From Minisyncoccia bacterium (GTDB taxonomy: Bacteria; Patescibacteriota; Minisyncoccia; Phycocordibacterales; DATDWN01): a stretch of 64,000 nucleotides of DNA. The DNA is taken from contig JBAQTF010000010.1 in assembly GCA_049296855.1 (NCBI GenBank), forward strand, positions 108,610-172,609, in the 5' to 3' direction. The first letter of the stretch is position 1, and every line of letters begins with the position of its first letter. Shown one piece after another: positions 380 through 54,906 of this stretch. The notes under the pieces were generated by a model, which searched no databases, was not told where the DNA came from, and saw nothing but the letters and a program-made list of their open reading frames with translations. A program made the translations under genes and the position numbers.

Positions 380-850
380 ATGCGAAGAAAAGTAACTAAC
401 AGAAACATAGTAGGAAAGGATAACGTATACCAATCAGAAAAAGTTGGGAAATTTATAAACTACATAATGATACGTGGTCAGAAAGAAACGGCGCGAAAGA
501 TTGTTTACGATGCATTCAACGTAATAAAAGAAAAAACAAAAACAGAAAACCCGATGGAAGTTTTTGATACAGCCTTGAAAAACACAGGACCTATGACAGA
601 AGTTAGATCTCGACGTGTTGGTGGTGCGAACTATCAAATTCCAAGAGAGGTCAGACCAGAAAGACGAGTTTTTCTTTCAATGAAATGGATCATTGAATCA
701 GCACGTAGTGGAAAGGGTAGCAAGATGGCTTCTCGACTCGCAGACGAAATAATTTTGGCTTCAAAAAACGAAGGTAAGGCAGTGAAAAAACGCGAAGATA
801 CTCATAAGATGGCTGAAGCGAACAAGGCATTCGCCCATTTCGCCTGGTAA
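380..850 (+). CDS. rpsG: 30S ribosomal protein S7
   Basis: The S7 family sequence is recognisable and the position after rpsL matches the str operon order. Confidence 0.9.
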   Translation: MRRKVTNRNIVGKDNVYQSEKVGKFINYIMIRGQKETARKIVYDAFNVIKEKTKTENPMEVFDTALKNTGPMTEVRSRRVGGANYQIPREVRPERRVFLSMKWIIESARSGKGSKMASRLADEIILASKNEGKAVKKREDTHKMAEANKAFAHFAW

Positions 851-1039
851 TCGGCTTCCAAATTTGGCGAACTCCTTGTTTCGTATTGAAAAATTCTCGT
901 CACCGTACTGTTGTACGTCTCCTCTCATTTTCCAATTCTCAACATCGGATTTCATCCAGATTTGAAACCCTCCAAAACTTTATCTACTTGACAATACGTA
1001 CTTATGTATGTTACGCTTGTGGTTAGAAGGAGACTAACA

Positions 1040-1574: not shown

Positions 1575-3716
1575 ATGAACAGAGACTATTCATTGGACAA
1601 GGTGCGTAATTTTGGAATAATCGCACACATTGATGCAGGAAAAACAACGACCTCAGAGCGTGTGCTTTTCTATACTGGAATGACTCACAAAATAGGTGAG
1701 GTGCACGAGGGTGAAACAGTAACGGACTGGATGGAGCAGGAGAGAGAGCGTGGTATCACTATTACGGCGGCGGCTATTACATGTTTCTGGAATCCGACTT
1801 ACATGACCAAAGGCGCAAAACCTGAATATCGTTTTAATATTATTGACACCCCTGGACATATTGACTTTACTGCTGAAGTGAAGAGAAGTTTGAGAGTTTT
1901 GGACGGCGCGGTTGTTGTATTTGACGGTGTAGCTGGGGTAGAACCACAATCAGAAACAAACTGGAGATATGCCGACGACGCTCAGACCCCTAGAATTTGT
2001 TTTATAAATAAACTGGACCGAACTGGTGCATCTTTTGAACGTTCATACGCATCTATTTTGGAACGTCTTACAAAAAACGCTGTCCGAGTTCAAATCCCAA
2101 TTGGTCTTGAAGATAAATTCGAAGGAGTTATAGACCTTTTGAAAATGAAGGCCTACTATTTTGAAGGAAACATGGGAATGACTATTCGCGAAGAGGAAGT
2201 GCCTAGCGAGTACCTTGAGGAAGCAAAGAAATATCGTGCAGAGCTAATTGAGAAGATTGTTGAACAAGACGATATTCTCATGGCTGAATATCTCGAAGGA
2301 AAAGAACCGTCATATGATGTTTTGAAAAAAACTTTACGAAAAGCATCTCTTGAAGTAAAAATTATTCCAGTTTTTGCAGGTAGTGCTTTGAAAAACAAAG
2401 GTGTTCAGCTCATACTCGACGGTGTAGTTGATTATCTTCCATCTCCAGTTGATATGCCTCCTGTTAGAGGATTGGATCCTGAAACTGGTGAGGAGATATT
2501 TAGAACTGCATCTGACACAGAACCATTTGCTGCATTGGCTTTCAAACTACAGAACGATCCGTTTGTCGGACAGCTAACATTCTTCCGTGTATATTCTGGA
2601 ACAATCGAATCTGGAACATACATTTATAACTCAACAACTGGCGAGAAAGAACGTCTTGGACGTATCGTCCGACTTCAAGCAGACAAACGTGAAGAAGTGA
2701 AAAAAGTTTTCGCTGGAGAGATCGCAGCAGCGGTGGGACTTAAATCTGCAAAGACTTCTCACACACTTTGTGATGAAGACAAACCAATTATTCTCGACCC
2801 AATTAAATTCGTCGATCCTGTAGTATCTCTACGCATAGAGCCAAAGACAAAAGCTGACCAAGAGAAAATGGGTATGGCCATGAAAAAACTTTCTGATGAA
2901 GATCCAACTTTCGTTATTTCTTCAAATACTGACACTGGTGAGAGTATTATTTCTGGAATGGGTGAATTACACCTAGAAATAATGGTTGACCGTATGAAAC
3001 GTGAATTCGGAGTTGAAGTAAATGTTGGTAAACCGCAAGTAGCATACCGCGAAACTATTCTTGGCTCTGCCGAAGCTGAACATAAATACATCAAGCAAAC
3101 TGGAGGTAAAGGTCAATATGGTCACGTTAAACTTACTATCAAACCTCTTCCAAAAATTGAAGAAGGAAAGAAAATCCCAAAGAATGTTCACCGATACGAA
3201 GACTTTGAATTCATCGACTCAATCAAAGGAGGTGTTATTCCACAAGAGTTTATTCCTGCTGTTGAGAAGGGTGTTCATGAAGCCATGGACAGAGGAATCG
3301 TGGCTGGATACAAAATGGTAAATATTTCTTGTGAACTTACATTTGGTTCTTACCACGATGTGGACTCATCTGAAATTGCTTACAAAATTGCCGCTTCACA
3401 AGCTTTCCAAGACGCAGCAAAACGCGCACGACCTGTGATACTAGAACCAATCATGAAAGTCGAAGCTATAATGCCAGAACAGTTCATGGGAGACATCACA
3501 GGCTCACTTTCTGGAAAACGCGGACAAATAGAAGGAATGGCTGAGAGAGGAATGCTTCGAGTAATTCACGCCAAAGTGCCCCTTTCGGAAATGTTTGGAT
3601 ATACAACTGACATACGTTCAATGACACAAGGAAGAGGTTCGGTTCAGATGGAATTTGATCACTACGAAGTGGTACCAGCGAATGTCGAGAAAGTGATTGT
3701 TGAGAGTCGAAAATAA
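1575..3716 (+). CDS. fusA: elongation factor G
   Basis: It has a GTPase G1 motif ([10 protein letters not shown]) and the domains of EF-G. The full length is 713 aa. Confidence 0.95.
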
Positions 3717-5432: not shown

Positions 5433-6638
5433 ATGGCAGATTCAGCAGTATTTGATCGAAGTAAACCGCACATAAACGTGGGAACAATCGGTCACGTTGA
5501 CCATGGAAAGACTACAATAACAGCAGCTATTTTAACTGTGCTTAGCAGGGCAGGAAACGGTTTTTCAGCTACAGTAAAAGGCGTTGATCAAATTGACTCC
5601 GCTCCTGAGGAAAAAGCACGTGGAATTACTATCGCACTTTCTCACAGTGAATATGCAACTCCTACTCGTCACTATGCTCACGTAGATGCGCCTGGTCACG
5701 CTGACTATATTAAAAACATGATTACTGGTGCCGCTCAAATGGACGGTGCTGTACTCGTAGTAGCAGCAACTGATGGTGTGATGCCTCAAACAAGAGAACA
5801 CGTTCTACTTGCAAAACAAGTTGGAGTTCCAAAAATAATTGTATTTCTAAACAAATGCGACATGGTACCTGACAAAGAACTTATTGATTTGGTTGAGGAG
5901 GAAGTTCGAGAACTCCTTACAAAACAAGGCTTTGATGGTGCAAACGTTCCTATTATTCGAGGTTCAGGATTGAAGGCTCTTGAGTCAAAAGATAACTCTG
6001 ATGAATGGGCAAAGAAAATTCTTGAACTTGCAAACGCGCTTGATACATATTTCCCAATTCCAGAGCGAGATTTAGAGAAACCATTTCTTATGCCAGTTGA
6101 AGATATATTCTCAATCGAAGGACGAGGTACTGTAGTAACAGGACGTATTGAAAGAGGAGTCGTAAAAGTCGGTGAAGAAATTGAATGTATTGGTTTGAAA
6201 GATACACAAAAATACACAGTTACTGGTATTGAAATGTTCAACAAATCACTTGACCAAGGTCAAGCTGGAGACAACGCCGGAATATTGCTTCGAGGTGCAA
6301 AGAAAGAAGAAATTCACCGAGGACAAGTTCTTGCAAAACCAAAAACTGTAACTCCTCACACAGAGTTCACAGCTGAAGTCTACATTCTAAAAAAAGAGGA
6401 AGGTGGACGACACACGCCATTCTTCTCTGGTTACAAGCCACAATTCTACATCCGAACCACAGACGTTACAGGAGATGTGACTCTAAACGACGGAGTAGAA
6501 ATGGTTATGCCAGGAGACACAGTTACTTTCAAAGTAAAACTTGTTGCTCCAGTTGCGCTTGAAGATAAGACTAGATTTGCTATCCGAGAGGGGGGAAAGA
6601 CAGTCGGCGCCGGCGTCGTCACCAAAATAATCGCTTAG
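5433..6638 (+). CDS. tuf: elongation factor Tu
   Basis: It has the GHVDHGKTT motif and the full EF-Tu architecture. Confidence 0.95.
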
Positions 6639-6791
6639 AGAACTTCCAAATCTGGCGAATTTCTGTGTTCTCGGTTTTACTTACTCCACGCGCAGTACTC
6701 TAGTACAGCTTGGTCGCAAGCAAAACCTACGAACTTCGAAATTCATCTAGATTGTTAGAGTTTTTGTTACTATCACTTGCGGAGGAGATAC

Positions 6792-9651: not shown

Positions 9652-10494
9652 ATGAAACGATATAAACCAACATCAAAATCTCGCCGAGGAATGACAACTA
9701 TTTCTTTTGGTGATTTCATAACTACAAACGAACCTGAGAAATCTTTGACTCACGGTTTTAGACGCCTTATGGGACGAAACCATCATGGTCATATTACAAC
9801 TCGCCACAAAGGAGGAGGTCACAAAAGACTTTTCCGTGAGATTGATTTTCGATACAACAAAATAAACGTCCCATATACAATCAAAACCGTCGAGTATGAT
9901 CCGAACAGAAGTGGATTTATCGGTCTTGCTCAATACAAAGACGGTGAAAAAAGATATGTCCTACTTCCGAGTTCAGTTAAAGTAGGAGATGTTCTTGTAA
10001 CATCTGAAAATGCAGAACAGAAAACTGGAAATAGACTACAACTCAAAAATATAAACGTTGGTACCTTTGTTTACAACGTAGAAGTAAAGCCTCAGGGTGG
10101 TGCAAAACTTGCCCGTTCTGCTGGAAACTATGTAGAAGTCATTGCAAAAGATGCTGGGTATGTTGATATCAAACTTCCTTCAACAGAAGTAAGAAAAATA
10201 AAAGACACAGCATGGGCATCTATCGGGGATGTTTCAAACAACGAGAATCGTCTAGTAAATCTAGGTAAAGCAGGACGTTCAAGATGGCTTGGTATTCGTC
10301 CAACAGTCCGCGGTACAGCTCAAAACCCAGTTGACCACCCATACGGAGGTGGAGAAGGTAGACAAGGCCGAGGACGCAGACGAGCAATCTCTGTATACGG
10401 TAAACCAACAGGAAAAGGCCAAAAATCTCGAACTCCAAAGAAGTACTCAAATAAATTCATTGTTTCTAGACGCCGAGTTGGAAAAAACAAATAA
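9652..10494 (+). CDS. rplB: 50S ribosomal protein L2
   Basis: It carries the L2 signature HKGGGHKR...GRNHHGHITTRHKGGG. Confidence 0.95.
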   Translation: MKRYKPTSKSRRGMTTISFGDFITTNEPEKSLTHGFRRLMGRNHHGHITTRHKGGGHKRLFREIDFRYNKINVPYTIKTVEYDPNRSGFIGLAQYKDGEKRYVLLPSSVKVGDVLVTSENAEQKTGNRLQLKNINVGTFVYNVEVKPQGGAKLARSAGNYVEVIAKDAGYVDIKLPSTEVRKIKDTAWASIGDVSNNENRLVNLGKAGRSRWLGIRPTVRGTAQNPVDHPYGGGEGRQGRGRRRAISVYGKPTGKGQKSRTPKKYSNKFIVSRRRVGKNK

Positions 10495-10571
10495 TTTCGG
10501 TCTTTTCGCTCTATAAACTAAGAAACTCTTCAAGGTTCGACCTTGAAGTAGCAACGATGATATGCCTGATT

Positions 10572-10600
10572 GACATTCCTCTGGGTTTTGTATAGTATAA
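10572..10600 (+). promoter_or_regulatory. strong promoter TTGACA-N17-TAGTAT in the rplB-rpsS intergenic region
   Basis: The -35 TTGACA is at 10572-10577, the spacer is 17 nt, and the -10 TAGTAT is at 10595-10600. Confidence 0.55.
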
Positions 10601-10606
10601 ACGCCA

Positions 10607-10685
10607 CTAAGGCTATGAGCCTTTTTACATTCTGTTTGCGGTATTAGGTAAGTCAGTACCACTAACGATGTGGTTTTTGTTTTGA
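10607..10685 (+). ncRNA. candidate small RNA or leader transcript (about 80 nt)
   Basis: It starts just after the promoter above and ends at the hairpin ccac-taacgat-gtgg (10661-10675), which is followed by tttttgtttt. It contains no ORF. Confidence 0.3.
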
Positions 10686-10828
10686 CAAATAGGCAAAATG
10701 AATTCATCTGCGTTGTTGCTGTTCAATTTTGTTCATTCACCTTACTTTTGTAAGGCTTAATCACAAAATCTCCAGCACCTAGCATCTGAATCCATTTAGC
10801 CAATTTGTCTAAGTAGACAAATTAAAAA

Positions 10829-14664: not shown

Positions 14665-14850
14665 ATGGCAAAAACATCAGTTAAAGCACGGGCGGCAAAA
14701 AAGCCCAAGTTTAGTACTCGGGCAACAAACCGATGCTTTCGATGTGGACGTGGGAGGGGATTTATGAGAGACTTTGGTCTCTGCCGAATCTGCTTCCGAG
14801 AGTTGGCCAATGAGGGCAAAATCCCAGGAATTAAGAAGAGTTCTTGGTAG
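14665..14850 (+). CDS. rpsN: 30S ribosomal protein S14 type Z (Zn-ribbon form)
   Basis: The protein is 61 aa and has the Cys cluster CFRCGRGRG...CRIC. I chose the internal ATG at 14665. Confidence 0.85.
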
Positions 14851-15043
14851 TCGCTCTGGTCTTTTTGTTCGATTTCTTCGTTTTCAGTTTTGTTTCCTCC
14901 ACGCGCAGTACGATTTGTACAGCTTGGTCACAAACAAAACCTCAAGCCTCGAACTCGAACAAAAATCCGCAGAGCTTGCACAAGTAGTTTCGGTAAGTCT
15001 TTGTTCACTAGAACGAGATACTACCAAGATATAATACAAAAAT

Positions 15044-16013: not shown

Positions 16014-16364
16014 ATGAAATCATCAAGTTTAAAAAAAGAAAAGAGGACAAGACGACATGTAAGAATACGTGCAAATATTTCTGGTACAAGTGTAATACCT
16101 CGTCTTTCTATCTTTAAATCTAACAAACACGTATCAGCTCAACTTGTTGATGATGAAAAAAATGTAACAATAGCTGGTAGTCATTCACGCAATGTAAAAG
16201 GAAAAACTATGATGGAAAAGTCAGTGCTCGTTGGAGAAGATATTGCAAAGAAAGCAGAAGCCTTGAAAGTAAAAAAAGTCGTCTTCGATCGGGGAGGCTT
16301 TATATATACTGGATGTGTTAAAGCACTTGCAGACGGTGCACGCAAAGGAGGATTGAAATTTTAG
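16014..16364 (+). CDS. rplR: 50S ribosomal protein L18
   Basis: The L18 family sequence is recognisable. Confidence 0.85.
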   Translation: MKSSSLKKEKRTRRHVRIRANISGTSVIPRLSIFKSNKHVSAQLVDDEKNVTIAGSHSRNVKGKTMMEKSVLVGEDIAKKAEALKVKKVVFDRGGFIYTGCVKALADGARKGGLKF

Positions 16365-16390
16365 AAATTGAAAATTAGAAATTAATTACT

Positions 16391-18696: not shown

Positions 18697-18783
18697 GGTT
18701 TAAAAGTAGAAAGTTAAAAGCAAGATGCTATAATGTATCTGTATTACTTTCAACTTTAAAACTTTCTAACTTTTTACTTCCAC

Positions 18784-19371
18784 ATGTCTCCACAAACTTT
18801 TGTTTTTATTGGACGGTCTGGTTGCGGAAAAGGAACACAGGCAGATCTGTTAATGAAAAAACTGAAAGAAAAACAGCCAGACGATTTTATTTTTTATCTT
18901 GAAACTGGTCAAAAATTCCGTGATTTCATTTCTGCCTCTGGATATTCAAACCAATTAGCAAAAACAATTCAAGATAAAGGTGCGTTGCAACCGTCTTTTC
19001 TGGCTGTCTGGATTTGGTCAGATATTTTAATAGAAAAATTAAGGAAAGATGACCATCTTTTCATCGATGGAACACCTAGAAAGCTTGGAGAAGCTATAAT
19101 ATTTTTTGAAGCTCTTAAATTTTATTCTCGAAAACCAAATGTTATATATATAAATGTTTCTCGTACATGGTCCGAGGAGCGCCTCTCTGAACGTCATCGA
19201 TCTGATGATATGTTTGCGCTAGTGAAAAAACGACTAGACTGGTTTGATTCAGAAGTTATGCCAGCAGTTGAATATTTCAAAGATAGTTTAGATGTTAATT
19301 TTTTTGATGTAAATGGTGAGAGGTCTATAGAAGATATTCATACCGACATTGTCTCAAAGCTAAAATGGTAA
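18784..19371 (+). CDS. adk: adenylate kinase
   Basis: It has the P-loop GRSGCGKGTQ. Confidence 0.85.
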   Translation: MSPQTFVFIGRSGCGKGTQADLLMKKLKEKQPDDFIFYLETGQKFRDFISASGYSNQLAKTIQDKGALQPSFLAVWIWSDILIEKLRKDDHLFIDGTPRKLGEAIIFFEALKFYSRKPNVIYINVSRTWSEERLSERHRSDDMFALVKKRLDWFDSEVMPAVEYFKDSLDVNFFDVNGERSIEDIHTDIVSKLKW

Positions 19372-19531
19372 AATAGTTGAAATTATCTCATCTGCGTTGT
19401 TGCTAGTTTTATTTTTTCCGTGCGCAGTAGGTTTACTACAGCTTGGTCAAAAATAAAACGTCGCGCCTAGCATCTGAAACAATTTCAACTATTTTACAAG
19501 TACCAAATTTCATGTAATGTAATGATATAAC

Positions 19532-23602: not shown

Positions 23603-24130
23603 TTATGCACGCTCGATAATGATGGATAACCCTTTTGGACTCTTTTTGGCTGGATCAGCCACTTTGTATTCTTCAGTAATAAGCTTTAACACACGTTCCA
23701 TACGTTCTTGTAAGAACTTCATGTCCATGTATTTTGTTCTTCCTGGGAGAAAAAGATCTATTTTGATGCGATTTCCTTCCTTTAACCACTGTGACGCTTT
23801 CTTGGCTTTAAGCTCTAAATCGTGGTCTCCGGTGCCTACTTTTACCTGTATATTCTTAACTTCTACTATATGAGCCTTGGTTTTAGCCACCTTTAGCTTC
23901 TTATTTTCAGCATACTGAAATTTACCATAATCCATGATTTTTGCAACCGGTGGATTAGCTTTTGGCGATATTTCGATGAGATCTAGTCCAGTCTCTCTAG
24001 CTTTGTCCAAGGCAACTTTAAAGGAGACAACCCCGAGATTTGTACCATCTTCCATAATGACACGAAGTTCAGGTGCTGTTATTTGGTTATTTATTCTTAT
24101 ATGTGTAGACAAAATTTTTAGAAATCCCAT
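23603..24130 (-). CDS. infC: translation initiation factor IF-3
   Basis: The IF3 N- and C-domains are recognisable. The true start may be a non-ATG codon. Confidence 0.85.
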   Translation of the reverse strand: MGFLKILSTHIRINNQITAPELRVIMEDGTNLGVVSFKVALDKARETGLDLIEISPKANPPVAKIMDYGKFQYAENKKLKVAKTKAHIVEVKNIQVKVGTGDHDLELKAKKASQWLKEGNRIKIDLFLPGRTKYMDMKFLQERMERVLKLITEEYKVADPAKKSPKGLSIIIERA

Positions 24131-24302
24131 ATTCGGCCAATCTCATCGTCTAAAATTTAGAAAACATCTTCACCATACTATGCGTATGTCTCAGATGATT
24201 TTCCAAATTTTATACATGATCTTGTCTCAAATCTGAAATTTCTTTATTAAGCTTATAATAATGTGAGGAAAATATAGCACGTTTTCCCTACGTACGCAAT
24301 TA

Positions 24303-24941: not shown

Positions 24942-25025
24942 AAAAAGAAGTATAACGCAGGAGACGGATTAACCAGTTGTTTATTACAAAACAAAAACTC
25001 CTATTCGGGAGTTTTTGTTAATTTG

Positions 25026-25421
25026 TGGAGAAGGAGAGAATTGAACTCTCGTGCAAATAAGATTTGATAATGTTTCTACACGACGTATTCAATTTAATTT
25101 TCTCGACTTCTATTCTTTAAATTGAAAAAATAAACAGAAGTCCAGTTTTCTTTTTCTCGAAACTAACTCGAAACTAAGTTAGCTTCCAGTCCGATGATAT
25201 ATCAATCACTTACCGTAACAGACTTAGGGTAGTGACCGCTCACTGAGTTTAATCTAAAAGATTAGACGAAAGCGAGAGCAAACTCATTCGCCATAAATGG
25301 TGAACGAACTGCTTTTGCAAAGGTGTTTTTAGCATCTATGCTTTGAAGCCTTTTAAAGAGTTACTCCAGCTCTGTCGTGCACATTGTCAAAGAATTTATC
25401 TGTCTAAACCTGTCATCCCCC
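25026..25421 (-). ncRNA. ssrA: tmRNA (ssrA)
   Basis: On the minus strand the T-arm GAGAG-TTCAATT-CTCTC is followed by CTTCTCCA, giving an acceptor 3' strand and a discriminator A. The 5' end is GGGGGAU, which provides the G3.U pair. A tag reading frame encodes ANEFALAFV* (25262-25291). The gene lies next to smpB. Confidence 0.6.
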
Positions 25422-28280: not shown

Positions 28281-28377
28281 GCCGACATTCATTACGAGTG
28301 TCGGCCTATCGCTTTGTTTATTAATTCATTTTTCATAAAGTATGCTAATTTGTTATAGTTACCTTGTACCAAATCCG

Positions 28378-28451
28378 CCTGTAGCTCAGTTGGTTAGAGC
28401 ATCGAGCTTATACCTCGAGGGTCCCACGTTCGAGTCGTGGCAGGCGGACAA
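28378..28451 (+). tRNA. tRNA-Ile with anticodon UAU
   Basis: The molecule folds as a cloverleaf. The acceptor stem is CCGCCTG/CAGGCGG, the D-arm is GCTC-AGTTGGTTA-GAGC, the anticodon stem-loop is TCGAG-CTTATAC-CTCGA, and the T-arm is CCACG-TTCGAGT-CGTGG. The discriminator is A and CCA is not encoded. Confidence 0.8.
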
Positions 28452-36561: not shown

Positions 36562-36722
36562 TAAAAAATTAAAACAACATTCGAAAACGACACGTTAGAA
36601 CTTTCACAATCTGGATACAGTTCTAGGCGGAAAGGTAAATGGGCAAGGAGACGTACATGTGGTACGTTGACGAGAATATTTGCCTTTCCAACAACGAAAT
36701 GTGCCAGATTTGGAAGTTCTAA

Positions 36723-37847
36723 CTAGAATGGATTCTTGGCTCCGCGGATTTCAAAGTGTAGATGCGTGCCGGTTATCCCCTTAACGCTACCGGAATGTCC
36801 CATTTTACCTATAACTTGTCCTTGCTGTACATGATCACCAACGTTAACTAAAGTTGCGCTTAAATGTCCGTACAGAGTCTGAGTACCATTTCCGTGTTTG
36901 AGTACGATATAAGAACCATAACCACCATTCCATCCAGTTGCTCGAGAAATGATTACATCTCCCTCGGCCGAAGCGAGAATGTTTGAACCGTATGCTGAAG
37001 CAAGATCAACACCGTTGTGGCCGTGAATACCTTGAGTTTTTATACCGCCTATAATAGGTCGCATGTAATAACCAGCATAAACAGGATAGGAGGGACCAGT
37101 TTTACCAACACCACCAGAAGTAGAGCCAGAAATAGTAACCGCTTCACCATCTGGAACAACGATAATATCTCCTATGGCCAATTTATCATCCTTATTTAAA
37201 TTATTATATTGCAAAATTTCATCTAAATCTCCTTTATGAAGTTTAGCTATACTTTGCAGAGTATCACCAGACTTTACGATATGTTGTATCCCAGAAATAG
37301 GGAGAATGACCAGAGTCTGACCGGAAGTTATAGTATTTCCTTTTATATCGTTTGCCCAACGTACAGTATTTACGCTGACACCAAACATTTTGGCTATAGC
37401 AGGTAGTGTATCTCCAGAATGAACTACGTAGACACTAATCTGATCTTCGTCTAGTGATTTCATCAATGAAGTAGGTGGAGGTACAGTTTCTGGAGAAAGA
37501 GATGTCCCTTCAACAATAGCTAACTCTCCAGTCGAAGTCGCACCTTGACCAGGAGAATTGACTGCCTGAAGTAAAAACATGTTTTGAGAATTTAAAACTA
37601 CCTCTTCAGCCTGTACCTTTTCTGTACAAAAAATCCAAAGAAAACATGTGGTAGAACCCTTAGCACTTACTGTATTAGGCATAAAAATAGACACAAATAA
37701 AACAGGCAAAACCACAGTGTTGCAAAGTAGAAAATTACATATGTTCACCACAGAAAGGCGAGATCCCACGTGACGGCATTTAACAATAAACGCCCTACCC
37801 ATGCTTTTAAGACCTGTCCAGAACAGTGGATCTTGTAGTAGACCCAA
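36723..37847 (-). CDS. LysM-domain M23 peptidoglycan endopeptidase
   Basis: It has two LysM motifs and the M23 zinc motif HxxxD...HLHFE. The start is uncertain. Confidence 0.8.
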   Translation of the reverse strand: MGLLQDPLFWTGLKSMGRAFIVKCRHVGSRLSVVNICNFLLCNTVVLPVLFVSIFMPNTVSAKGSTTCFLWIFCTEKVQAEEVVLNSQNMFLLQAVNSPGQGATSTGELAIVEGTSLSPETVPPPTSLMKSLDEDQISVYVVHSGDTLPAIAKMFGVSVNTVRWANDIKGNTITSGQTLVILPISGIQHIVKSGDTLQSIAKLHKGDLDEILQYNNLNKDDKLAIGDIIVVPDGEAVTISGSTSGGVGKTGPSYPVYAGYYMRPIIGGIKTQGIHGHNGVDLASAYGSNILASAEGDVIISRATGWNGGYGSYIVLKHGNGTQTLYGHLSATLVNVGDHVQQGQVIGKMGHSGSVKGITGTHLHFEIRGAKNPF

Positions 37848-44039: not shown

Positions 44040-46184
44040 TTGAGCTTTAAGGAAAAGACTTTTCAACAGAAAGGCTGGTTTTTAAAAGACACATTGGTAT
44101 ATAATGTAGGTGTTATATGTCTTTTTAAAAATACCTTGAAAAGTAATAATTTTATTAAGAAAAACTTGGTTATTGTTGCTTTGTTGTTGTCTTTTCTGGT
44201 TCCCCAAAAGAGTCATGCTTATGCTGGAGTTGTAGATGTTGTTATTGACCCAGCCCATATAACAAAATCTGTTATAAATGGAATTCAACTTGCAAAATCA
44301 TTCGCAATGTTTGCTGCGAACACTCTTGCATGGAGATATGCTAAATCACTTGTTCAAGATATAACTGGTTCAACAGTAAATTGGATAAACTCTGGATTCG
44401 AAGGTAATCCAGCATACATAACAGACCCTAGTCAGTTTTTCCTCGATATAGCGGATGATACTGCTGGAGAATTTCTTTCTGGAACAAGGCTAAACGTACT
44501 CTGTACGCCTTTTAGAGGACCAGTTAGATTGGCCCTACTTAATAGCTATCTAAGAAATACTAATAATCAACAATATGCCTGTACATTGTCAAAAATACTA
44601 AACAATTATGACGCCTTTACAAATGATTTCAGTGTCGGAGGATGGGATGGTTGGTTTGAAGTAACTCAAAGTACTGGTGGTAATCCATACTATGTAGCAC
44701 TTTCTACACAAAACGAAATGCTAGATAAAGTTGCTTCTGAACAAACTATCTACAAAGAACAGTCAACACAAAGTGGAGGATTTTTGTCAATGGAGAAATG
44801 TAGACCTGAAGACACAGTAACAGCTGGAAATCAAGCAGCTATGTCAGCTAAATTTGGAAGATCATTAAATGTTGGGGATTGTACTGGTAAAAAAGAAGTG
44901 GTTACACCGGGAAGCGTCATAGCAGACCAACTAAATACTCAACTACCTACGGGAGTACGTTCACTAGAATTAGCTGACTCACTAGGAGAAATAATTAACG
45001 CAGCTATATCAATGCTAACCACAAAAATCCTGGGTCCTGGTCAAGGTCTTCGAGGACTGACTGGTCAATTACCTCCAGGGGCTAGTAGCTCGGGATTTCC
45101 AGTTCTAGACGTAACTGGTGATAACCCAGTGACTCATTATCTAGGTACATTTTATGAAGATGCCAGAGCGACAGCTATTGACATGGAAGATGGTGATATA
45201 ACCAGCAGAATAGTAACAAGTGGAGGTGTTAATTATAATACTATCGGAACTTATAAAATCACGTATAGTGTGACCAATTCTAGAGGCAATACTGCGACCG
45301 CAGTTAGAACAGTCATAGTAAGACCGTTTCAAGAGCCAGGTGCTGGAACTGGAGAGACTTGTGTAGATGGTATCAAAAATCAAGACGAGACAGGAATTGA
45401 TACGGGAGGGATTTGTGGAAGTGGGACTATAGCAACTTGTTCCGATGGTATTAGAAATCAAGATGAAACGGGAATTGATGTTGGTGGGATTTGTGGAATT
45501 GGAAGTTCTGCACCAGTAATAACCTCGATTAGTCCTACAGGAGTTTTACTTGGAGTGGCAACAACAATGACTATTACTGGTAATAACCTAACATCTAGTG
45601 TGCAGTTCACTGATAGTACAGGAAAGGTATTTAATGTAACAGGGACAGTCATAAACGGTGGTACGCAAACTAGAGTATCAGTACCAACAAACCTAGCTCC
45701 TAACGTTACAACTCTAAAAGTATTAAATGGTGGATTTGCATCAAACGCAGTATCATTCATCGTAACTGTATCACCGACTTGTGTCGCCGGATCAAATGAA
45801 ATGTCTTGTGTTGCACCTAACCAAGCTAATCTAGTTTCAGAAGTGATTAAATATTTAATTAGCAAAGGACAAACATTTAACATAAATAACAGTTGTGACT
45901 TCTATGAGATAACTAAACGTGTAGCCTGGGCTCTAAGAAGTACAGACGGCGGATTACTGACAAGTCCTGGTTCTGGATGTAACGCAAATTCTGTTGTCAT
46001 GATAAGTTACATAGATAACTCTCGCGTTAAAATACTATTTTGGGATAACAACGGCTTATTGTTACCAGGTTCTGTCAGATGGGATCCTTTCCCACAAAGT
46101 AACGATGGAAGTATTGTTTATATCCCACCAGTCGATCCAGGTGATCCAGCTAATGCTTGTTACTTAGCAAAAACTCCTTGCTAA
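44040..46184 (+). CDS. large secreted surface protein with an Ig-like domain, two tandem Cys-containing repeats and an IPT/TIG-like domain
   Basis: The motif GTYKITYSVTNSRGNTATAVRTVIV is Ig-like. The repeat CxDGIxNQDETGIDxGGICGxG occurs twice (nt 45361-45516). ITSISPTGV...TITGNNL is IPT-like. The start is uncertain. Confidence 0.55.
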   Translation: MSFKEKTFQQKGWFLKDTLVYNVGVICLFKNTLKSNNFIKKNLVIVALLLSFLVPQKSHAYAGVVDVVIDPAHITKSVINGIQLAKSFAMFAANTLAWRYAKSLVQDITGSTVNWINSGFEGNPAYITDPSQFFLDIADDTAGEFLSGTRLNVLCTPFRGPVRLALLNSYLRNTNNQQYACTLSKILNNYDAFTNDFSVGGWDGWFEVTQSTGGNPYYVALSTQNEMLDKVASEQTIYKEQSTQSGGFLSMEKCRPEDTVTAGNQAAMSAKFGRSLNVGDCTGKKEVVTPGSVIADQLNTQLPTGVRSLELADSLGEIINAAISMLTTKILGPGQGLRGLTGQLPPGASSSGFPVLDVTGDNPVTHYLGTFYEDARATAIDMEDGDITSRIVTSGGVNYNTIGTYKITYSVTNSRGNTATAVRTVIVRPFQEPGAGTGETCVDGIKNQDETGIDTGGICGSGTIATCSDGIRNQDETGIDVGGICGIGSSAPVITSISPTGVLLGVATTMTITGNNLTSSVQFTDSTGKVFNVTGTVINGGTQTRVSVPTNLAPNVTTLKVLNGGFASNAVSFIVTVSPTCVAGSNEMSCVAPNQANLVSEVIKYLISKGQTFNINNSCDFYEITKRVAWALRSTDGGLLTSPGSGCNANSVVMISYIDNSRVKILFWDNNGLLLPGSVRWDPFPQSNDGSIVYIPPVDPGDPANACYLAKTPC

Positions 46185-46246: not shown

Positions 46247-48796
46247 ATGTTTAGAAAAATAACCCAACTAAAATCAGTAGGACATAGCGGTAAAAAATAT
46301 TTCACTCGTGGAGCAATGTCGTTTTTCACTATAGGACTAATACTGGTTATATTTGTGGGAATTTTTAGTCCTGTTGTGAAAATACAAGCACAAGGGATAC
46401 CAGGACAATCATATACAGACATGGGAACTTGTACAGGTAATAATGGAAATTTTAGTGAACGACTGATGCGTGGTGATTGTCAGCAACTGATAGATCAGGG
46501 TATTATTCTTGGAGGAGTGTTCACCCCAGATCCACCTCCACCAGAACCTCCTGCCGCACCAGAACCTCCTAAAACAGACTGTGGTTTTTCTCCATCTACT
46601 TGGACAGATTGTTTCGAAAATGTCATCCAAACCATATTCGTAGCTATACTCAAAATGATGAGTTGGATTACTGGAATCGCTGGTTTACTACTAAACTTTG
46701 TACTGAAGTACACCATTCTAGATATGAAGGTAAATATAGATGGATTAACGGGTATAAACACTGCTTGGAAAATCCTGCGTGATTTGATGAACATTGCATT
46801 TATATTCCTTCTTATATATGAGGGTATAAAAATGATAATAGGACAGAGTAGCACAAATGACGTTAGAAAATTCATCACTGGACTTGTTCTGGCTTCACTT
46901 TTGATAAACTTTAGTTTATTTTTTACCAAAGTGATGATAGATGCATCAAACATTGTTACTATAGGATTCTACCAAGCAATCCTTGTTCCACCTCCCGGTT
47001 CAACTGTTCCTATCGCAGAATATGGGCTCTCTGATCCAATCGCTAGAGCACTGGGACTAGCCGGTTTGTTTGGTGCAACTGGCGATCCAGGTTTTGCTGG
47101 TGGAAACGACATGGGAGGTATACTCATTATGGCTCTTGGATCGGGAATGGTGCTTTTGGTTTCTGCTTTTGTTTTCTTTGCTGTATCTATACTGTTTATT
47201 ATCCGATATATTGCTCTCATAATTCTGATGATGCTATCTCCGATTGCTTATATGGGTATAGCTTTACCTTTTGTAAGTGGTTATGCCAAAGACTGGTGGA
47301 AAGCATTTAATAGTCAGATTATTTTTGGACCAGTCTATATGATTATGACTTGGGTCATACTGACACTTATGTCTAGTCCTGGTTTTGGTATGCAAGGAAG
47401 TTTTGTAAAGTTGTTTAACGATCCAACAAAACCAAGCTTTAGTAACATAGGTCTTCTATTTAATTTTGCTTTAATTATTGGACTTCTCATAGCTTCTCTT
47501 CTTATCGCCAAAAAGGTTTCTTCCAATGGTTCAAATCATATCGCCAATGCAACAAGCAGACTCTCTGCATTTGCTGGTGGAGTGGTAATAGGTGGCGGTG
47601 CAAGACTAATGAGAAACACGGTTGGTAGAGCTGGAGCTGATAGCGCAAACAATGAGGATTTAAAAGAAAGAGCAACGAGAGAAAGATTTGGATTGATAGA
47701 TAAAACCAAGGGAGCTTGGGCCAAAAGCTCACTCGCTGCAGCTAATAAAGCCGCAACAAGTAGTTTTGACGCTCGTGCAACAAGTAGTTTTGAAGGAGTA
47801 GCTAAAGCATCTGGTATGGGTTTTGGAAAAGTTGATGTCAAAAAAGAAAATTTCAAAGCGATTAAAGAAGCTCAAGGAAAAGCTGCTGAAGAAAAAGCAA
47901 AACAATATAAACCAACTGATCTTGCTGTCGAACAAGCTAAAGCAAAACTTAATGAAAAAACTGACGAAGGACAGAAGTTTAGAGATGAAGAGGCGGAGAG
48001 AAAGAGGGCTCATGATATTTATATAAAATCGGATGACTACAAAAATTCTAATGAGTATGAGAATATTCAAAAATTAGAGGATGATAATAGAAGAGATAAA
48101 ATCAAAGTTAGAGATGATAAAGTAGATATCAAATATTCGCAACAAAAACTTGATGACCTAAGAATTAAAATGGACGAATATGCGGAAAATACACCAGAAA
48201 AAACTCAGATTAGAGATAAGATAGATATTCTACAAAAAGAAACTGCCAGAAAACAGGAGTTGCTAAGAGGACTAGAGAATCTTGTTACAAGTCGAGGGGA
48301 TACAATAGATGAGTATGAATTCAACATAGTTAACTATATGTCTGAAGAAAAGAAAGCACTCATTGCAACCGCAGGAGGAACAAAGAACGAGAAAGGCCCA
48401 GGTGGAGTAGATGTGATAAAAGACCAGGCCGGAAATACTGTTGATAGAAAGGTTAAATCTGCATATGAACAAAGAACAGAAGCTACAGCAAGTAGAATTG
48501 AAAACGCTGGACCTATGTGGAGATATGCAGCAAATACTGTTGGAATTGCAGCTAATGTTGTTGGAGTTCCTCTTGTTTCCATTCCAAAAACAAAAGCTGA
48601 CAGAGATGAATTGGCTAGAAGAGTTAGAAAGGCATCGGCTCCGAAAAACGCAGCCCAGCTCCGAAAAGAAGCTGAGAAACTAGAAAAAAAAGAAAGGGTA
48701 GCGAGGGGTGAAAAAGATGAAGATGAGGAAGAAACACCTGAACCAACACCAGCTCCAACACCAACACCAGCTCCAGAAAATCCACCAACAACTTAA
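46247..48796 (+). CDS. VirB6/TrbL-like polytopic membrane protein with a long coiled-coil C-terminal domain
   Basis: It has an N-terminal signal/anchor, a Cys-containing extracytoplasmic loop and about 7 TM helices. The C-terminus is a 400-aa charged coiled-coil that ends in a PT-rich tail. Confidence 0.45.
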   Translation: MFRKITQLKSVGHSGKKYFTRGAMSFFTIGLILVIFVGIFSPVVKIQAQGIPGQSYTDMGTCTGNNGNFSERLMRGDCQQLIDQGIILGGVFTPDPPPPEPPAAPEPPKTDCGFSPSTWTDCFENVIQTIFVAILKMMSWITGIAGLLLNFVLKYTILDMKVNIDGLTGINTAWKILRDLMNIAFIFLLIYEGIKMIIGQSSTNDVRKFITGLVLASLLINFSLFFTKVMIDASNIVTIGFYQAILVPPPGSTVPIAEYGLSDPIARALGLAGLFGATGDPGFAGGNDMGGILIMALGSGMVLLVSAFVFFAVSILFIIRYIALIILMMLSPIAYMGIALPFVSGYAKDWWKAFNSQIIFGPVYMIMTWVILTLMSSPGFGMQGSFVKLFNDPTKPSFSNIGLLFNFALIIGLLIASLLIAKKVSSNGSNHIANATSRLSAFAGGVVIGGGARLMRNTVGRAGADSANNEDLKERATRERFGLIDKTKGAWAKSSLAAANKAATSSFDARATSSFEGVAKASGMGFGKVDVKKENFKAIKEAQGKAAEEKAKQYKPTDLAVEQAKAKLNEKTDEGQKFRDEEAERKRAHDIYIKSDDYKNSNEYENIQKLEDDNRRDKIKVRDDKVDIKYSQQKLDDLRIKMDEYAENTPEKTQIRDKIDILQKETARKQELLRGLENLVTSRGDTIDEYEFNIVNYMSEEKKALIATAGGTKNEKGPGGVDVIKDQAGNTVDRKVKSAYEQRTEATASRIENAGPMWRYAANTVGIAANVVGVPLVSIPKTKADRDELARRVRKASAPKNAAQLRKEAEKLEKKERVARGEKDEDEEETPEPTPAPTPTPAPENPPTT

Positions 48797-48801
48797 AATA
48801 T

Positions 48802-49557
48802 ATGGATAATCAACAAGAAATACCGGAATACATAAAAAATCTACCAAAACCAGTGCAAGATGTAGTTCTTGATGGCGTTTGGGAGAGTAGAACGACTGAA
48901 ATTGCCAAAAAATATGCTCTTAATCCAATTCAGACTGACGGTTTAATAAATTCTGTACTTTTTATTTTAATTGGTCTGGATAAACCTGATGATTTTTTGG
49001 AGAGAATAATTAACGATCTTGGAATATCAAGTCTTCTTGCTGAGCAAATATTGGAAGATGTAAACAATCGAGTATTTGAGTACGCTATAAAAGAAATTGG
49101 TGGTAAAAGTAAATCAGAATTAGCACAAAACATTCCAAGTTCTGTTCCAATTCAATCTAAGACTGTCGAGGGTAGGGTAGAGATAAGACCTGAAAATTTG
49201 CCTAGTAAAAACATCACGACCACGCAAGAAAAACCACCAGCACCAAAATACGTACCAACCTACAAACCAACTGCCACAGTTTTAAACGACCCATCTCTAC
49301 ACCATGAACTACCCAAAGTAGCTCCTGAACCATCACGTATAATATACAAACCCAATGCTTCATCTGAACCCATTCAACAACCAATTCCTGTTCCACGTTT
49401 CGTTCCAAAACCAGTGACAGATATGTCTGCACAGACAGGAACTCTAACTGTACAAACTAGTAAACCACTAGAAACTGTCGCACTAGCTAAGACCGAACAA
49501 AAAGAAAAACCTCCAGAAAGATATACTATCGACCCCTATAGAGAACCAATAGAATAA
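48802..49557 (+). CDS. hypothetical protein with a Pro-rich C-terminal half
   Basis: Only an ORF. It is co-directional with the rest of the cluster. Confidence 0.4.
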   Translation: MDNQQEIPEYIKNLPKPVQDVVLDGVWESRTTEIAKKYALNPIQTDGLINSVLFILIGLDKPDDFLERIINDLGISSLLAEQILEDVNNRVFEYAIKEIGGKSKSELAQNIPSSVPIQSKTVEGRVEIRPENLPSKNITTTQEKPPAPKYVPTYKPTATVLNDPSLHHELPKVAPEPSRIIYKPNASSEPIQQPIPVPRFVPKPVTDMSAQTGTLTVQTSKPLETVALAKTEQKEKPPERYTIDPYREPIE

Positions 49558-49558
49558 A

Positions 49559-49993
49559 ATGAAATACCAAGTACCACAATTTATAGATGTGGAGGACAAA
49601 ATAGTCGGCCCTTTTACTGTAAAACAATTCATTTATGTCGTCGGTGGGGCGGGAATGGCTTTTATTATATACAGATTTCTACCAATATACATATCTGTAA
49701 TACTCTTAGCTGTGACAATCCCTCTTTCTCTAGCACTAGCTTTTTATAAAGTAAATAACAAACCTTTTATTGACTTTCTTGAGTCAGCTTTTCTCTACTA
49801 CACAAAAAACAACTTATACATCTGGAAAAAGGAGGAGAAAAAGATTGCGGAGTCGGAAATCAAAGCGACCAGAATGACACAAGTTCATGTTCCAAGACTT
49901 TCTGACAGTAAATTAAAAGAGCTTTCGTGGTCGCTCGATATTAATGAAAATCTAAATCCACTTACAGGTGATGACGGAAAGAATACCAAATAA
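49559..49993 (+). CDS. PrgI/VirB3-like small membrane protein
   Basis: The protein is 144 aa and has a hydrophobic hairpin (VVGGAGMAFIIY...ILLAVTIPLSLALAF). Its start codon overlaps the stop of the preceding gene, and a VirB4-like gene lies downstream. Confidence 0.4.
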   Translation: MKYQVPQFIDVEDKIVGPFTVKQFIYVVGGAGMAFIIYRFLPIYISVILLAVTIPLSLALAFYKVNNKPFIDFLESAFLYYTKNNLYIWKKEEKKIAESEIKATRMTQVHVPRLSDSKLKELSWSLDINENLNPLTGDDGKNTK

Positions 49994-50070
49994 TTTCTAA
50001 TTTCTAGTTCATTAAAACCGTAGTTTTTAGAAATTGAAAATTAGAAATTACTTTATGTTATAATAAAATC

Positions 50071-50709
50071 ATGACTGCATCTTCAAAAGCAACACAGGAG
50101 TTCGTTCCAATAAAAGAAGTGCGCGACGGCATTATCGTCTTAAAAAGTGGCTCAATGCGAGCTATCGTTCTAGCCTCTTCATTAAACTTCAGTCTAAAGT
50201 CAGAAGACGAGAGAAACGCTATCATATTGCAATTTCAAGATTTTCTTAACTCATTAGACTTTGCAGTACAAATTTCTATAGAGTCCAGACGACTGGATAT
50301 AAGACCGTACTTAGCCCTTTTAGAGGATCGTTACAAAGAACAGATAAATGAACTGATGAAAATCCAGACCAGAGAATACATAGAGTTCGTCAAAAAATTT
50401 ACCGAAACGACAAATATCATGACGAAAAGTTTCTTTGTCGTTGTTTCATATGATCCAGCTATAATAAGCATGAAAAGTGGTATGATGAGCGGTTTATTTC
50501 AGAAAAAGTCTAATGCACAAGAAACCGCTGATAAAAAAGCTGGGTTCGAAGAAAACAAAACTCAACTAGAACAGCGTGTTTCAGTAGTAGAACAGGGCCT
50601 ATCTCGATGTGGAATACGTGTGATAAGACTAGGAACAGAAGAGGTTGTAGAATTGTTCTATAAAATATTTAATCCTGGAGATACGGAGAAACCAATAAAA
50701 GTTAGTTAA
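50071..50709 (+). CDS. hypothetical cytoplasmic protein, possibly an accessory or N-terminal-domain partner of the VirB4-like ATPase
   Basis: A 212-aa ORF lying 9 nt upstream of the ATPase gene. Confidence 0.4.
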   Translation: MTASSKATQEFVPIKEVRDGIIVLKSGSMRAIVLASSLNFSLKSEDERNAIILQFQDFLNSLDFAVQISIESRRLDIRPYLALLEDRYKEQINELMKIQTREYIEFVKKFTETTNIMTKSFFVVVSYDPAIISMKSGMMSGLFQKKSNAQETADKKAGFEENKTQLEQRVSVVEQGLSRCGIRVIRLGTEEVVELFYKIFNPGDTEKPIKVS

Positions 50710-50718
50710 AACAAATTT

Positions 50719-52521: not shown

Positions 52522-52541
52522 ATCGTGTTAAAATAAAAGTT

Positions 52542-52970
52542 ATGGGAGACGACGCTAAAATAAAAGACACCACACTATTCCTCATGATTGCCGTGGCACT
52601 GTCTTTTGATTTTTTACAAGCACTTATTGGTTGGATTCCAATAGTAGGCAATATTATGTCTGACCTTATGAGTGTTTTTATCTGTTTAACTTTTGTTTTT
52701 TGGTTTATGATGGTTGGGATAAAGATTAGCCAAAAAAGAATTATGGCTTTGGTTGGTGGAGGAGCGGTTGAAATAATTCCTTTTATAAATATACTACCTG
52801 CTTGGACTGCCGTGGTCGTTTATATTGTGGGCACAACAAGAATCAAAGAACTTACTGCCGAACATCCAAAACTAGCCAGAGGTGCAATGGCTGCTGGGGG
52901 TAAAATAAAAAGTATGGCTAAAGGCAAAACGGAAGAGACCGAATCAGAGACTGCGGAAGTAGTTGCTTAA
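52542..52970 (+). CDS. hypothetical 3-4 TM membrane protein
   Basis: Hydrophobic segments are present. Confidence 0.45.
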   Translation: MGDDAKIKDTTLFLMIAVALSFDFLQALIGWIPIVGNIMSDLMSVFICLTFVFWFMMVGIKISQKRIMALVGGGAVEIIPFINILPAWTAVVVYIVGTTRIKELTAEHPKLARGAMAAGGKIKSMAKGKTEETESETAEVVA

Positions 52971-54045
52971 TGTGCATAAATATATAGTGAAAAGTAGGTG
53001 CTATGGTACAATTAGGCTAATGAGAATTTCTATTTTTTCATTGTTAATTCTATGCTTACTCTTCTTCTTTAGTTTTGACGTAAACGTACGAGCCGAAGAC
53101 ACGGTAATGGCTAAAGACAAGATAAATGTCGAGTTAATCCCAGCAATCCCTAAAGCACATGAAATTGTCACTGCTTTTCTAACAAGCTTTATGACGAACA
53201 TAAATGCAGCTGATATCACTTGGAAAATAGATGGTAAAACTCAAAAAACTGGGACTGGTGAGACAAAATTTCAATTTACTTTGAGTAGTATAAATACAAC
53301 CACCAATCTGGAAGTTACAGTCATCACAGCAGAAGGTGAAACTGTAGTAAGTGAGTATAGTATAAAACCTGCTGATATTGACTTGATTTGGCAAGCAAAA
53401 AGTTTTGTCCCACCTTTTTATAAGGGTAAGGCTATTTTTAGTCATCAAAACGAGATTACTTTCGTAGCCGTACCACACATTGCTTCTGGTAGTGGAGAAA
53501 TCCCCGCAAAAAATCTAATCTATAAATGGTCAAAAGACGGCAGAGTGTTAGAAAGTGATTCTGGGTACGGAAAAAACACATTGACTATGACTGGACCGAT
53601 CATATCTCGACCATTCACTATATATGTAGAAGTAACAACACTAAATACACCGGACAAAGGTTTTTCTTTTACAAATATAACTCCAGCCTTACCGTCCATC
53701 GTTTTTTACAAAAAAGATCCACTTTATGGAATTGAATTTCAAAAAGCTTTAAGTGGTATTATAGATATGGGCAATCTAAGTGAGATGGTTATTATTGCAG
53801 AACCTTTTTTCTACGGGACTACAAATGCTGGGGCATCTGAGTTAACATATAAATGGACTGTTAATGGAACAGTTGTAAACAGTGATCCGCGACAAACAGT
53901 GCAAGTCTTTAGAGTAAAAGAAGGGACTTATGGAACTTCAAACATTTCTCTATCGATTGAAAATAGCCTTAAAATATTTCAGTATGTTTCGAGTAATTTT
54001 AAATTAAAGTTTGGAAAATCAACAACAGAAAATGTAGCTTTTTGA
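52963..54045 (+). CDS. hypothetical secreted beta-rich protein
   Basis: It has a signal peptide (from about 53020) and no known motif. Confidence 0.45.
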   Translation: MLNVHKYIVKSRCYGTIRLMRISIFSLLILCLLFFFSFDVNVRAEDTVMAKDKINVELIPAIPKAHEIVTAFLTSFMTNINAADITWKIDGKTQKTGTGETKFQFTLSSINTTTNLEVTVITAEGETVVSEYSIKPADIDLIWQAKSFVPPFYKGKAIFSHQNEITFVAVPHIASGSGEIPAKNLIYKWSKDGRVLESDSGYGKNTLTMTGPIISRPFTIYVEVTTLNTPDKGFSFTNITPALPSIVFYKKDPLYGIEFQKALSGIIDMGNLSEMVIIAEPFFYGTTNAGASELTYKWTVNGTVVNSDPRQTVQVFRVKEGTYGTSNISLSIENSLKIFQYVSSNFKLKFGKSTTENVAF

Positions 54046-54062
54046 TAATATACGACTAAACC

Positions 54063-54905: not shown

Positions 54906-54906
54906 T

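Follow-up and report, generated by a model that had tools for sequence, protein, structure and literature searches.

A family of palindromic hairpin repeats with their left edge on stop codons in Patescibacteria and other bacteria

Several kinds of small palindromic mobile repeat are already known from bacteria. The ERIC (or IRU) element, 127 bp long, is a near-complete imperfect palindrome with TA termini that lies in transcribed intergenic or untranslated sequence and yields a long stem-loop transcript. The Correia (NEMIS) elements of Neisseria and the RUP elements of S. pneumoniae are MITEs of 100-155 bp that have a TA target duplication, are co-transcribed as hairpins and occur in short and long forms differing by an internal segment; Correia hairpins are RNase III substrates, and RUP is linked to IS630-Spn1. 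The REP/REPIN-RAYT system consists of high-copy extragenic palindromes at gene ends, the hairpins of which are thought to be important as single-stranded DNA or as RNA. Individual REPs are 20-40 nt long with a GTAG tetranucleotide and a nearby RAYT gene, and REP doublets form long hairpins.

Here we analyse a hairpin between adk and map, designated copy C, in a 64-kb stretch of Minisyncoccia DNA (the window), together with the family to which it belongs. The family resembles ERIC in size, in its near-complete imperfect palindrome with TA termini, and in its transcribed intergenic or UTR location and predicted long stem-loop transcript, although the two have no sequence similarity. It is likewise similar to the Correia and RUP elements in length, in hairpins that are expected to be co-transcribed, in the occurrence of forms that differ internally and, at copy C, in a joint that would fit a TA duplication, but those elements are genus-limited, have well conserved inverted repeats and come with no reported stop-codon rule, and the copy C family has no known cognate insertion sequence. 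With REP/REPIN it shares a high copy number and an extragenic position at gene ends; its unit, however, is ~130 nt, and neither the REP tetranucleotide nor a nearby RAYT gene was found. What distinguishes the family is strict docking of its left edge on a stop codon, a polarity that is ~95% sense, exchangeable tips on a conserved module that occurs in at least three phyla, and termini that are less conserved than the interior. We count the analogy with bacterial MITEs (TA termini and long stem-loop transcripts) in favour of reading copy C as a mobile hairpin. The family is apparently undescribed: no copy tested matched Rfam 15, even at E<=10 (gathering and permissive thresholds, five regions), the tip pattern given below had 0 matches in IMG/VR, and literature searches by sequence strings and by topic found no description of it.

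An earlier note on this DNA had taken copy C to extend from 19385 to 19480 and to end in two short motifs. Both motifs are real. The window contains exactly two occurrences of the 17-nt motif TCATCTGCGTTGTTGCT, at 10704-10720 and 19388-19404 (the latter had been placed one base off, at 19389-19405), and exactly two of the 13-nt motif CCTAGCATCTGAA, at 10778-10790 and 19466-19478. Shuffled sequence contains on average 0.11 matches to TCATCTGCGTTGTTGCT even with up to 3 mismatches; CCTAGCATCTGAA by itself does not reach significance if 2 mismatches are tolerated, whereas the two motifs in this order and at similar spacing do. The proposed extent is nevertheless too short, and the motifs, rather than being ends, form the opposite strands of a mid-stem module within a 128-nt hairpin (Table 1), which folds with z scores of -6.5 on the sense and -9.9 on the antisense strand and matches our covariance model with 108 bits over 19362-19507.

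The element is a rod-like hairpin in which an exchangeable tip tops a conserved mid-stem module and a variable outer stem. The paired outer stem continues for 17-20 nt beyond both motifs on each side, up to the stop codon of adk (ORF 18784-19371), and AAATAGTTGAAATT, which follows this stop directly, pairs with AATTTCAACTATTT at 19481-19494. In the module, the 17-nt motif is made up of a helix strand UCA, a tandem mismatch UC, a second helix strand UGC and the internal loop GUUGUUGC, and the 13-nt motif of a CCUAG loop, GCA, UC and UGA. The strands UCA and UGA form one helix and UGC and GCA the other; in between, UC lies opposite UC, forming a tandem U.C mismatch on the sense strand and a tandem G.A on the antisense strand, and beyond them lies the internal loop GUUGUUGC / GCGCCUAG. 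The two motifs are thus one sequence variant of the module. The CATCTG direct repeats, which had been put forward as possible target-site duplications at the boundaries, are found here in mid-stem, where TCA pairs with TGA, TGC pairs with GCA and the central TC faces TC; lying inside the stem, they are neither boundaries nor target duplications. The compensatory stem change noticed earlier in the tip is confirmed, the core of copy C reading GTAG...CTAC at 19422-19448 where copies A and B read GTAC...GTAC.

Repeat search and alignment revealed four copies in the window (A to D), and the covariance model seven. The diverged copy upstream of infC was absent from the training set of the model and is the orientation exception of the window.

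Table 1. Parts of copy C and positions of the family members in the window.
Feature	Position	Strand	Evidence
Copy C, whole 128-nt imperfect hairpin between adk and map	19369-19496	+	fold and covariance-model match
adk stop codon TAA, bases 1-3 of the copy C hairpin	19369-19371	+	pairs with TTA 19494-19496
17-nt motif, 5' strand of the mid-stem module in copy C	19388-19404	+	
13-nt motif, 3' strand of the mid-stem module in copy C	19466-19478	+	
Tip type 1 of copy C, GCGCAGTAG GTTTA CTACAGCTTGGTC, with covarying G-C/C-G pair	19422-19448	+	
Copy A, directly after tuf stop TAG; outer stem type 1, tip type 1	6636-6775	+	100 bits (model match 6631-6775)
Copy B, directly after rpsN (S14) stop TAG; outer stem type 2, tip type 1	14848-14982	+	114 bits (match 14844-14988)
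Copy D, rplB-rpsS gap; mid-stem module of copy C, tip type 2	10684-10809	+	69 bits (match 10679-10818)
Copy after rpsG (S7) stop TAA; outer stem type 1, tip type 2	848-978	+	63 bits (match 843-984)
Inverted copy behind the stop of a LysM/M23 peptidase gene on the minus strand; stem type 1, tip type 2	36586-36728	-	85 bits
Diverged copy ahead of infC, antisense to the genes on either side	24112-24255	+	47.5 bits, E 2e-8

Copy D is the second place at which the motif pair occurs. Both motifs are present there as noted before, but the hairpin between them is not the unrelated structure that it had been taken for: copy D aligns over its full length with the other copies and is a diverged homologue with a different tip (CCTTAC 10740-10745 / GTAAGG 10750-10755). 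Its position is not behind a stop codon but in a 5' leader, downstream of a promoter-like TTGACA-17-TATAGT. The idea of a modular element therefore holds in so far as copies C and D keep the same conserved pieces around different internal hairpins, although these pieces are not the ends. Outer stems recur in types, type 1 with TAAAACTTCCAAA..., type 2 with TAGTCGCTCTGGTCTTTTTG... and type 3 with the 17-nt and 13-nt motifs, and at least two tips are present in the window, GCGCAGTAG..CTACAGCTTGGTC in copy C and CACCTTAC..GTAAGGC in copy D. Stems and tips reassort: stem 3 carries tip 1 in C and tip 2 in D, and stem 1 carries tip 1 in A and tip 2 in the S7 and 36.6-kb copies. Both tip types are found on other outer stems, in the window and in relatives.

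Some further features of the window were seen alongside these copies. The sequence upstream of copy D (10492-10683) is a mosaic: the left end of a type-2 element (TAATTTCGGTCTTTTCGC) immediately behind the rplB stop, then a small hairpin CTTCAAGG-TTCGA-CCTTGAAG and an inverted fragment of an element left half (GCAACGATGATATGCC), followed by the near-consensus promoter TTGACA-17-TATAGT directed into copy D and rpsS. The secY-adk spacer (18697-18783) contains a ~65-nt hairpin with arms TAGAAAGTTAAAAG / CTTTAAAACTTTCTA that are like type-1 termini in swapped order and flank an extended -10-like TGCTATAAT; this hairpin may be a footprint or derivative of the element. The 725-nt S7-fusA gap (851-1575) contains, besides one element copy, small ORFs at 1004-1213 and 1284-1481 that are small-membrane-protein-like. 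Elsewhere in the window are a tRNA-Ile with UAU anticodon (28375-28449), a minus-strand tmRNA with tag peptide AKNTFAKAVRSPFMANEFALAFV (25023-25420), a 29-nt repeat TTTTAGAAATTGAAAATTAGAAATTA present twice at 97% identity (16359-16387 and 50025-50053), and a 78-nt tandem duplication within coding sequence as well as several Pro/Thr-rich repeats of 12-nt period (45344-45499 and 46532-55119).

Searching one genome per species with the exact tip pattern GCGCAGTAS N3-6 STACAGCTTGGTC returned 81 genome loci, nearly all in Patescibacteria MAGs (the Parcubacteria/Paceibacterota/Minisyncoccia group) and often several per genome. The S...S tip position is complementary in 84/84 exact-core copies; in an alignment of 79 copies this pair is C-G in 53 and G-C in 26, and 27 of the 33 consensus pairs show compensatory double changes. 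The covariation test and the covariance model are based on a 48-sequence alignment that includes both tip types and has a 35-pair structure. Here 85.9% of paired cells can pair, against 61.8% after shuffling, and double changes occur in 33/35 pairs; the covariation score of 0.574 compares with 0.162 for shuffled alignments (0/500 shuffles reach it) and 0.09-0.19 for slid controls. The pairing is thus maintained by compensatory change. The covariance model gave 109 matches in 608 kb of relatives' loci in addition to the 7 in the window.

The motif pair has a wider range than the exact tip. A metagenome scan with the pattern TCATCTGCKTYGTYGC N40-70 GCATCTRA found at least 120 loci with many different interiors, on contigs of 32-66% GC. 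Among the matches listed, 50 have long GTAC...GTAC-type tips, three short forms account for 24, 8 and 7, and 31 have other interiors; GCGCCTM ahead of the second motif is conserved among them, though the pattern did not demand it, and each example that we folded has the same hairpin architecture. Hosts outside the Patescibacteria are a Casimicrobiaceae betaproteobacterium (L104) and an Oscillospiraceae firmicute (L156), in which the hairpin begins at the TAA of SecA. The earlier note had made the modular reading depend on the motifs being present in relatives; the pair is present both there and in metagenomes.

Individual loci of relatives show variations on this plan. Two (L074 2150-2230 and L030 7795-7870) contain an extra conserved module of ~75 nt, TGAGAAG..GCAAGACCTTGAAyrTTTTGTArwCAAAATGTGAAAGGTGTACTGyTCCTGTAAGGA, which lies 3' of the tip in one genome and 5' of it in the other and may be a nested insertion or a branch domain. 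At L050 (3027-3310) two copies stand back to back in opposite orientation (3027-3171 plus, 3171-3310 minus), and at several other loci convergent genes are separated by nothing but a single element, both ends of which carry a stop codon. Contigs assigned to a WWE3 MAG and to a Zambryskibacteria MAG (L042 and L052) share an element that is identical together with its flanks, so one of the bins is probably wrong. Of the entries L028 and L077, the match in a Nitrospira MAG looks like a mis-binned Patescibacteria contig, and that in a Deltaproteobacteria MAG is partial only.

The elements spread within and between genomes. Copies that are 90-95% identical stand behind unrelated genes, including within one genome (L027/L031) and on one contig (L060/L070), and orthologous junctions differ in occupancy. 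The S14-S8 junction is filled in the window and in two relatives (L039, L046) and empty in two others (L019, L042); the SecY-adk junction is filled in L003 and L074; and behind EF-G there is an element in L035 but plain terminators in L012, L036 and L053. At the site of copy C itself, the adk-map junction is empty, with a spacer of 11-16 nt, in the five closest Adk homologues found (74-85% identity). Copy C is a recent insertion. Two independent unitig assemblies share it, and both break within it, as is expected of a repeat.

These observations bear on the possibility that the hairpin is a vertically inherited, non-mobile cis-regulatory RNA of ribosomal-protein and housekeeping operons, acting as a protein-binding leader, attenuator or processing site. 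Such an RNA would account for the strong covariation and conserved loops, for the recurrence of elements behind S7 and S14 in several genomes, and for the fact that elements are far more conserved than codon third positions at the same loci. As sole explanation, however, it is largely refuted by the empty sites and by the near-identical paralogous copies behind different genes; elements also lie behind dozens of unrelated genes, and related modules are found inside an IS5-type betaproteobacterial element. We therefore hold it to be improbable.

The conservation itself can be read in two ways. At loci that share the upstream gene, element identity is 0.63-0.96 against 0.28-0.68 for codon third positions, and 43 double compensatory changes stand against 35 broken pairs, the doubles exceeding the expectation for independent mutation. 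Some elements are even more alike than codon positions 1+2, and the S7 site carries three different combinations of outer stem and tip in different genomes, which also speaks against a purely vertical regulator. Because repeated insertion or replacement could produce both of these patterns and so mimic constraint, we do not take the conservation as proof of it.

The joint of copy C with its flanks gives an indication of how it may have been inserted. The window reads TGG-TA/A...element...TTT/TA-C-AAGTACCAAATTTC, with slashes at the joints, and the relative L085 reads TGG-TAG-AGTACATTTCT. This one comparison, in which the homology of the spacers is judged by their resemblance, agrees with an insertion that hit the TA of the stop codon and duplicated it. 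A simple TA duplication does not fit all copies, since TA is present on the right side of only ~9/16 type-1 copies and copies at TGA stops end in TCA. The outer stems pair as terminal inverted repeats, and subfamily termini, for example AACTTCCAAA...TTTGRAAGTT, recur behind unrelated genes, yet the termini are the least conserved part of the element and the interior the most conserved. The elements are 125-145 bp long and non-coding, with no ORF beyond the stop codon of the host gene. We found no autonomous element with type-1 termini 0.3-3 kb apart in ~690 kb of loci, and saw no transposase, including Y1/RAYT, next to copies or between inverted ones, where the genes are not transposases.

Nearly all elements have their left edge on the stop codon of a gene and the same orientation as that gene. 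In 65 seed copies the upstream gene is on the same strand and its stop (TAA in 39, TAG in 21, TGA in 5) ends 46-52 nt ahead of the tip. The genes are diverse and of housekeeping type, encoding among others S7, HU, EF-G, EF-Tu, S14, SecY, Adk, SSB, DnaB, GAPDH, transketolase and RNR. An independent set of 35 copies from outside the search seed divides into 23 sense, 1 antisense and 11 in other contexts such as 5' leaders, and in the 23 sense copies the ORF stops 4-10 nt into the model. A strict polarity test on the motif-pair matches listed gave 19 sense, 4 antisense and 5 both. The docking is exact to the base: the stop codon and the next 5 nt have a reverse-complement partner at the mirror position in 32/60 copies, compared with 2/60 for the 8 coding nt before the stop, so that the edge of the palindrome is the first base of the stop. 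Stops and right ends accordingly form the pairs TAA...TTA, TAG...CTA and TGA...TCA.

Polarity tracks the gene, as is seen from the 36.6-kb copy, which is on the minus strand behind a minus-strand gene although GC skew is positive across the whole window, and from closely spaced copies of opposite orientation, each of which stands behind its own gene. The elements lie in the 3'UTR or intercistronic spacer of a transcription unit, and transcription of the gene should therefore include the sense copy. They show no enrichment at convergent junctions (29% versus 28%) or at the ends of transcription units. In relatives L039, L046, L012, L036, L053 and L043, canonical intrinsic terminators interrupt the ribosomal-protein cluster after L5, EF-G and L2, and this 'operon' therefore seems to be split into several transcription units.

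A position at gene ends, together with canonical terminators at the same junctions elsewhere (after EF-G and L2), would suit a terminator or attenuator of transcription, whether factor-dependent or intrinsic but lacking a U-tract. We doubt this strongly. The hairpin lacks a U-tract; a canonical intrinsic terminator follows 11/58 element-bearing gene ends (19%), about as often as it follows other ends (97/637, 15%), and where present it is separate from and downstream of the element; convergent junctions are not enriched; and several copies separate tightly linked essential genes, as at S14-S8 and adk-map. Lying between stop codon and terminator, the element is 3'UTR sequence and not a substitute terminator.

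The strand that folds better is the antisense one, in 75/82 copies and with alifold energies of -25.5 against -10.7 for the sense strand. A tally of G.U against A.C on the RNAalifold table (118:43) had led us to regard the antisense strand as the selected one, a conclusion that we have withdrawn because structure prediction on one strand biases this tally. In controls that use the structures of both strands the counts are symmetric, 183 versus 198 by MFE per strand and 165 versus 145 on the union of both strands' pairs, and each strand has its own conserved wobble positions. The energy advantage of the antisense strand is explained by its purine-rich loops, including the tandem G.A in the mid-stem module, and from the position of the elements inside transcription units the sense strand is expected to be transcribed.

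The functional molecule might still be an antisense RNA, or the element a bottom-strand recombination site of the integron attC type, a pair of readings to which we give very little credence. The folding preference, the purine-rich internal loops with tandem G.A and the conserved U.G pairs point in this direction, and attC sites likewise follow ORFs and use the bottom strand. Against an antisense RNA stands, in addition to the symmetric counts, a bidirectional terminator within ~10 nt behind some copies, which leaves no room for an antisense promoter. Against attC, core sites of the form R''(RYYYAAC)/R'(GTTRRRY) are not matched by the termini, the elements are flanked by core housekeeping genes instead of cassettes, and the conserved part is the tip and centre rather than the ends, whereas the centre of attC is variable. 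The readings as a terminator, a vertically inherited cis-regulator and an attC-like site each conflict with our tests. By eye, against consensus motifs, the hairpin fits none of retron, SECIS, K-turn, C/D-box, hammerhead or hairpin ribozyme, T-loop, IHF site or attC-like structure. A promoter on the right terminus (TTGAAA) was also considered and dropped for its inconsistent spacing.

The main rival, which we regard as unlikely although clearly the strongest of the alternatives, is a single-stranded DNA element of the IS200/IS605-RAYT (HUH/Y1) type, like REP/REPIN or PATE. The hairpin with its mismatches would be recognised as folded single-stranded DNA and inserted directly 3' of a short TAA- or TAG-containing target on the exposed coding strand (lagging-strand template, or non-template strand of transcribed genes), giving fixed polarity and no target duplication. 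This would explain jointly the abutment on TAR, the strong polarity, the inconsistent duplication on the right, and the conserved mismatches and asymmetric loops; for the polarity and the missing duplication it would do better than the reading that we prefer. The plus strand of the window is G-rich (leading), and 6/7 copies are plus-oriented, including the one that is antisense to its neighbours. The spread across phyla also resembles that of IS200/IS605 elements. Against this rival, no Y1/RAYT gene was seen beside any copy, copy C compared with the empty sites fits a TA duplication, the element forms a single long hairpin and not two distinct subterminal ones, and close copies of opposite orientation behind their own genes speak against a pure replication-strand rule.

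A composite repeat of GC-rich contigs links related modules to a known type of insertion. At L104 (4702-4977) and 14 similar loci, of which only L104 is typed (Casimicrobiaceae), a repeat of 273-297 bp holds two module hairpins in opposite orientation, an arrangement that is REPIN-like. Its ends, GGAACCTCTGAACAAGTCCC, match the end of E. coli IS5, GGAAGGTGCGAACAAGTCCC, at 15/20 positions (the IS5 end was checked in an annotated genome), and it is flanked by 4-bp CTAA/TTAG duplications, an IS5-type target that contains a stop codon. Its predicted fold has -218 kcal/mol, and in L104 it starts directly after the stop codon of CoxL. We count the IS5-like ends and the duplication in favour of a mobile hairpin. 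The likeness to IS5-family elements and MITEs, with IS5-like ends and a 4-bp YTAR duplication, is confined to this betaproteobacterial composite: copy C, the other copies in the window and the Patescibacteria elements are without IS5-like ends and are flanked by TA or TAR only.

In summary, copy C is probably one insertion of a family of mobile, non-coding, nearly full palindromes of ~125-135 bp and of the ERIC, Correia/NEMIS, RUP and REPIN kind that is expected to be transcribed in 3'UTRs. As judged from the joint, it would have entered adk at the TA of its stop codon; an A supplied by the element as its first base would have restored the stop, and the old spacer of 11-16 nt would have been pushed downstream. 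In compact genomes the TA of a stop codon may be a rare spot at which an insertion spares both the reading frame and the start signals of the next gene, and selection on the transcript could then keep sense polarity and hairpin integrity. By analogy with ERIC and Correia hairpins, the hairpin may affect mRNA processing or stability, and a stop codon within its base would be an ideal position for such coupling; the conserved module is presumably a binding site for a mobilising enzyme or a host factor. Several observations count against this preferred reading: no autonomous partner was found in the loci searched, the right TA is inconsistent, the termini are less conserved than the interior, symmetric termini leave the strong sense polarity unexplained, folding energies favour the antisense strand, and the ends of transcription units are not enriched in elements.

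A bolder interpretation, which we offer as a speculation with perhaps a slim chance of being right, is that the stop-codon-docked hairpins found across phyla, with the module UCAUCUGC-GUUGUUGC / GCGCCUAG-CAUCUGA and its variants, contain a candidate binding site of a widely conserved factor, and that their placement is directed rather than being what survives of random TA insertions. Insertion might be coupled to transcription or targeted to single-stranded DNA 3' of TAR. Alternatively, the hairpin might be an RNA switch in which the terminating ribosome melts the base of the stem and so sets the fate of the mRNA.

In practice, short-read assemblies break at the elements, which can be taken wrongly for riboswitch-like RNAs or operon leaders and may be used as strain-typing markers for uncultured lineages. 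Patescibacteria are regarded as extremely streamlined, and about one gene end in 10 of the window, including in the ribosomal-protein cluster, bears a mobile hairpin of ~130 bp. Beneath the exchangeable tips, a conserved module is common to Patescibacteria, a betaproteobacterium and a firmicute. Directed placement, if true, would amount to a novel logic of targeting by mobile DNA; should the host use the hairpin, it would be a widespread, unannotated 3'UTR signal and a general layer of 3'-end control.
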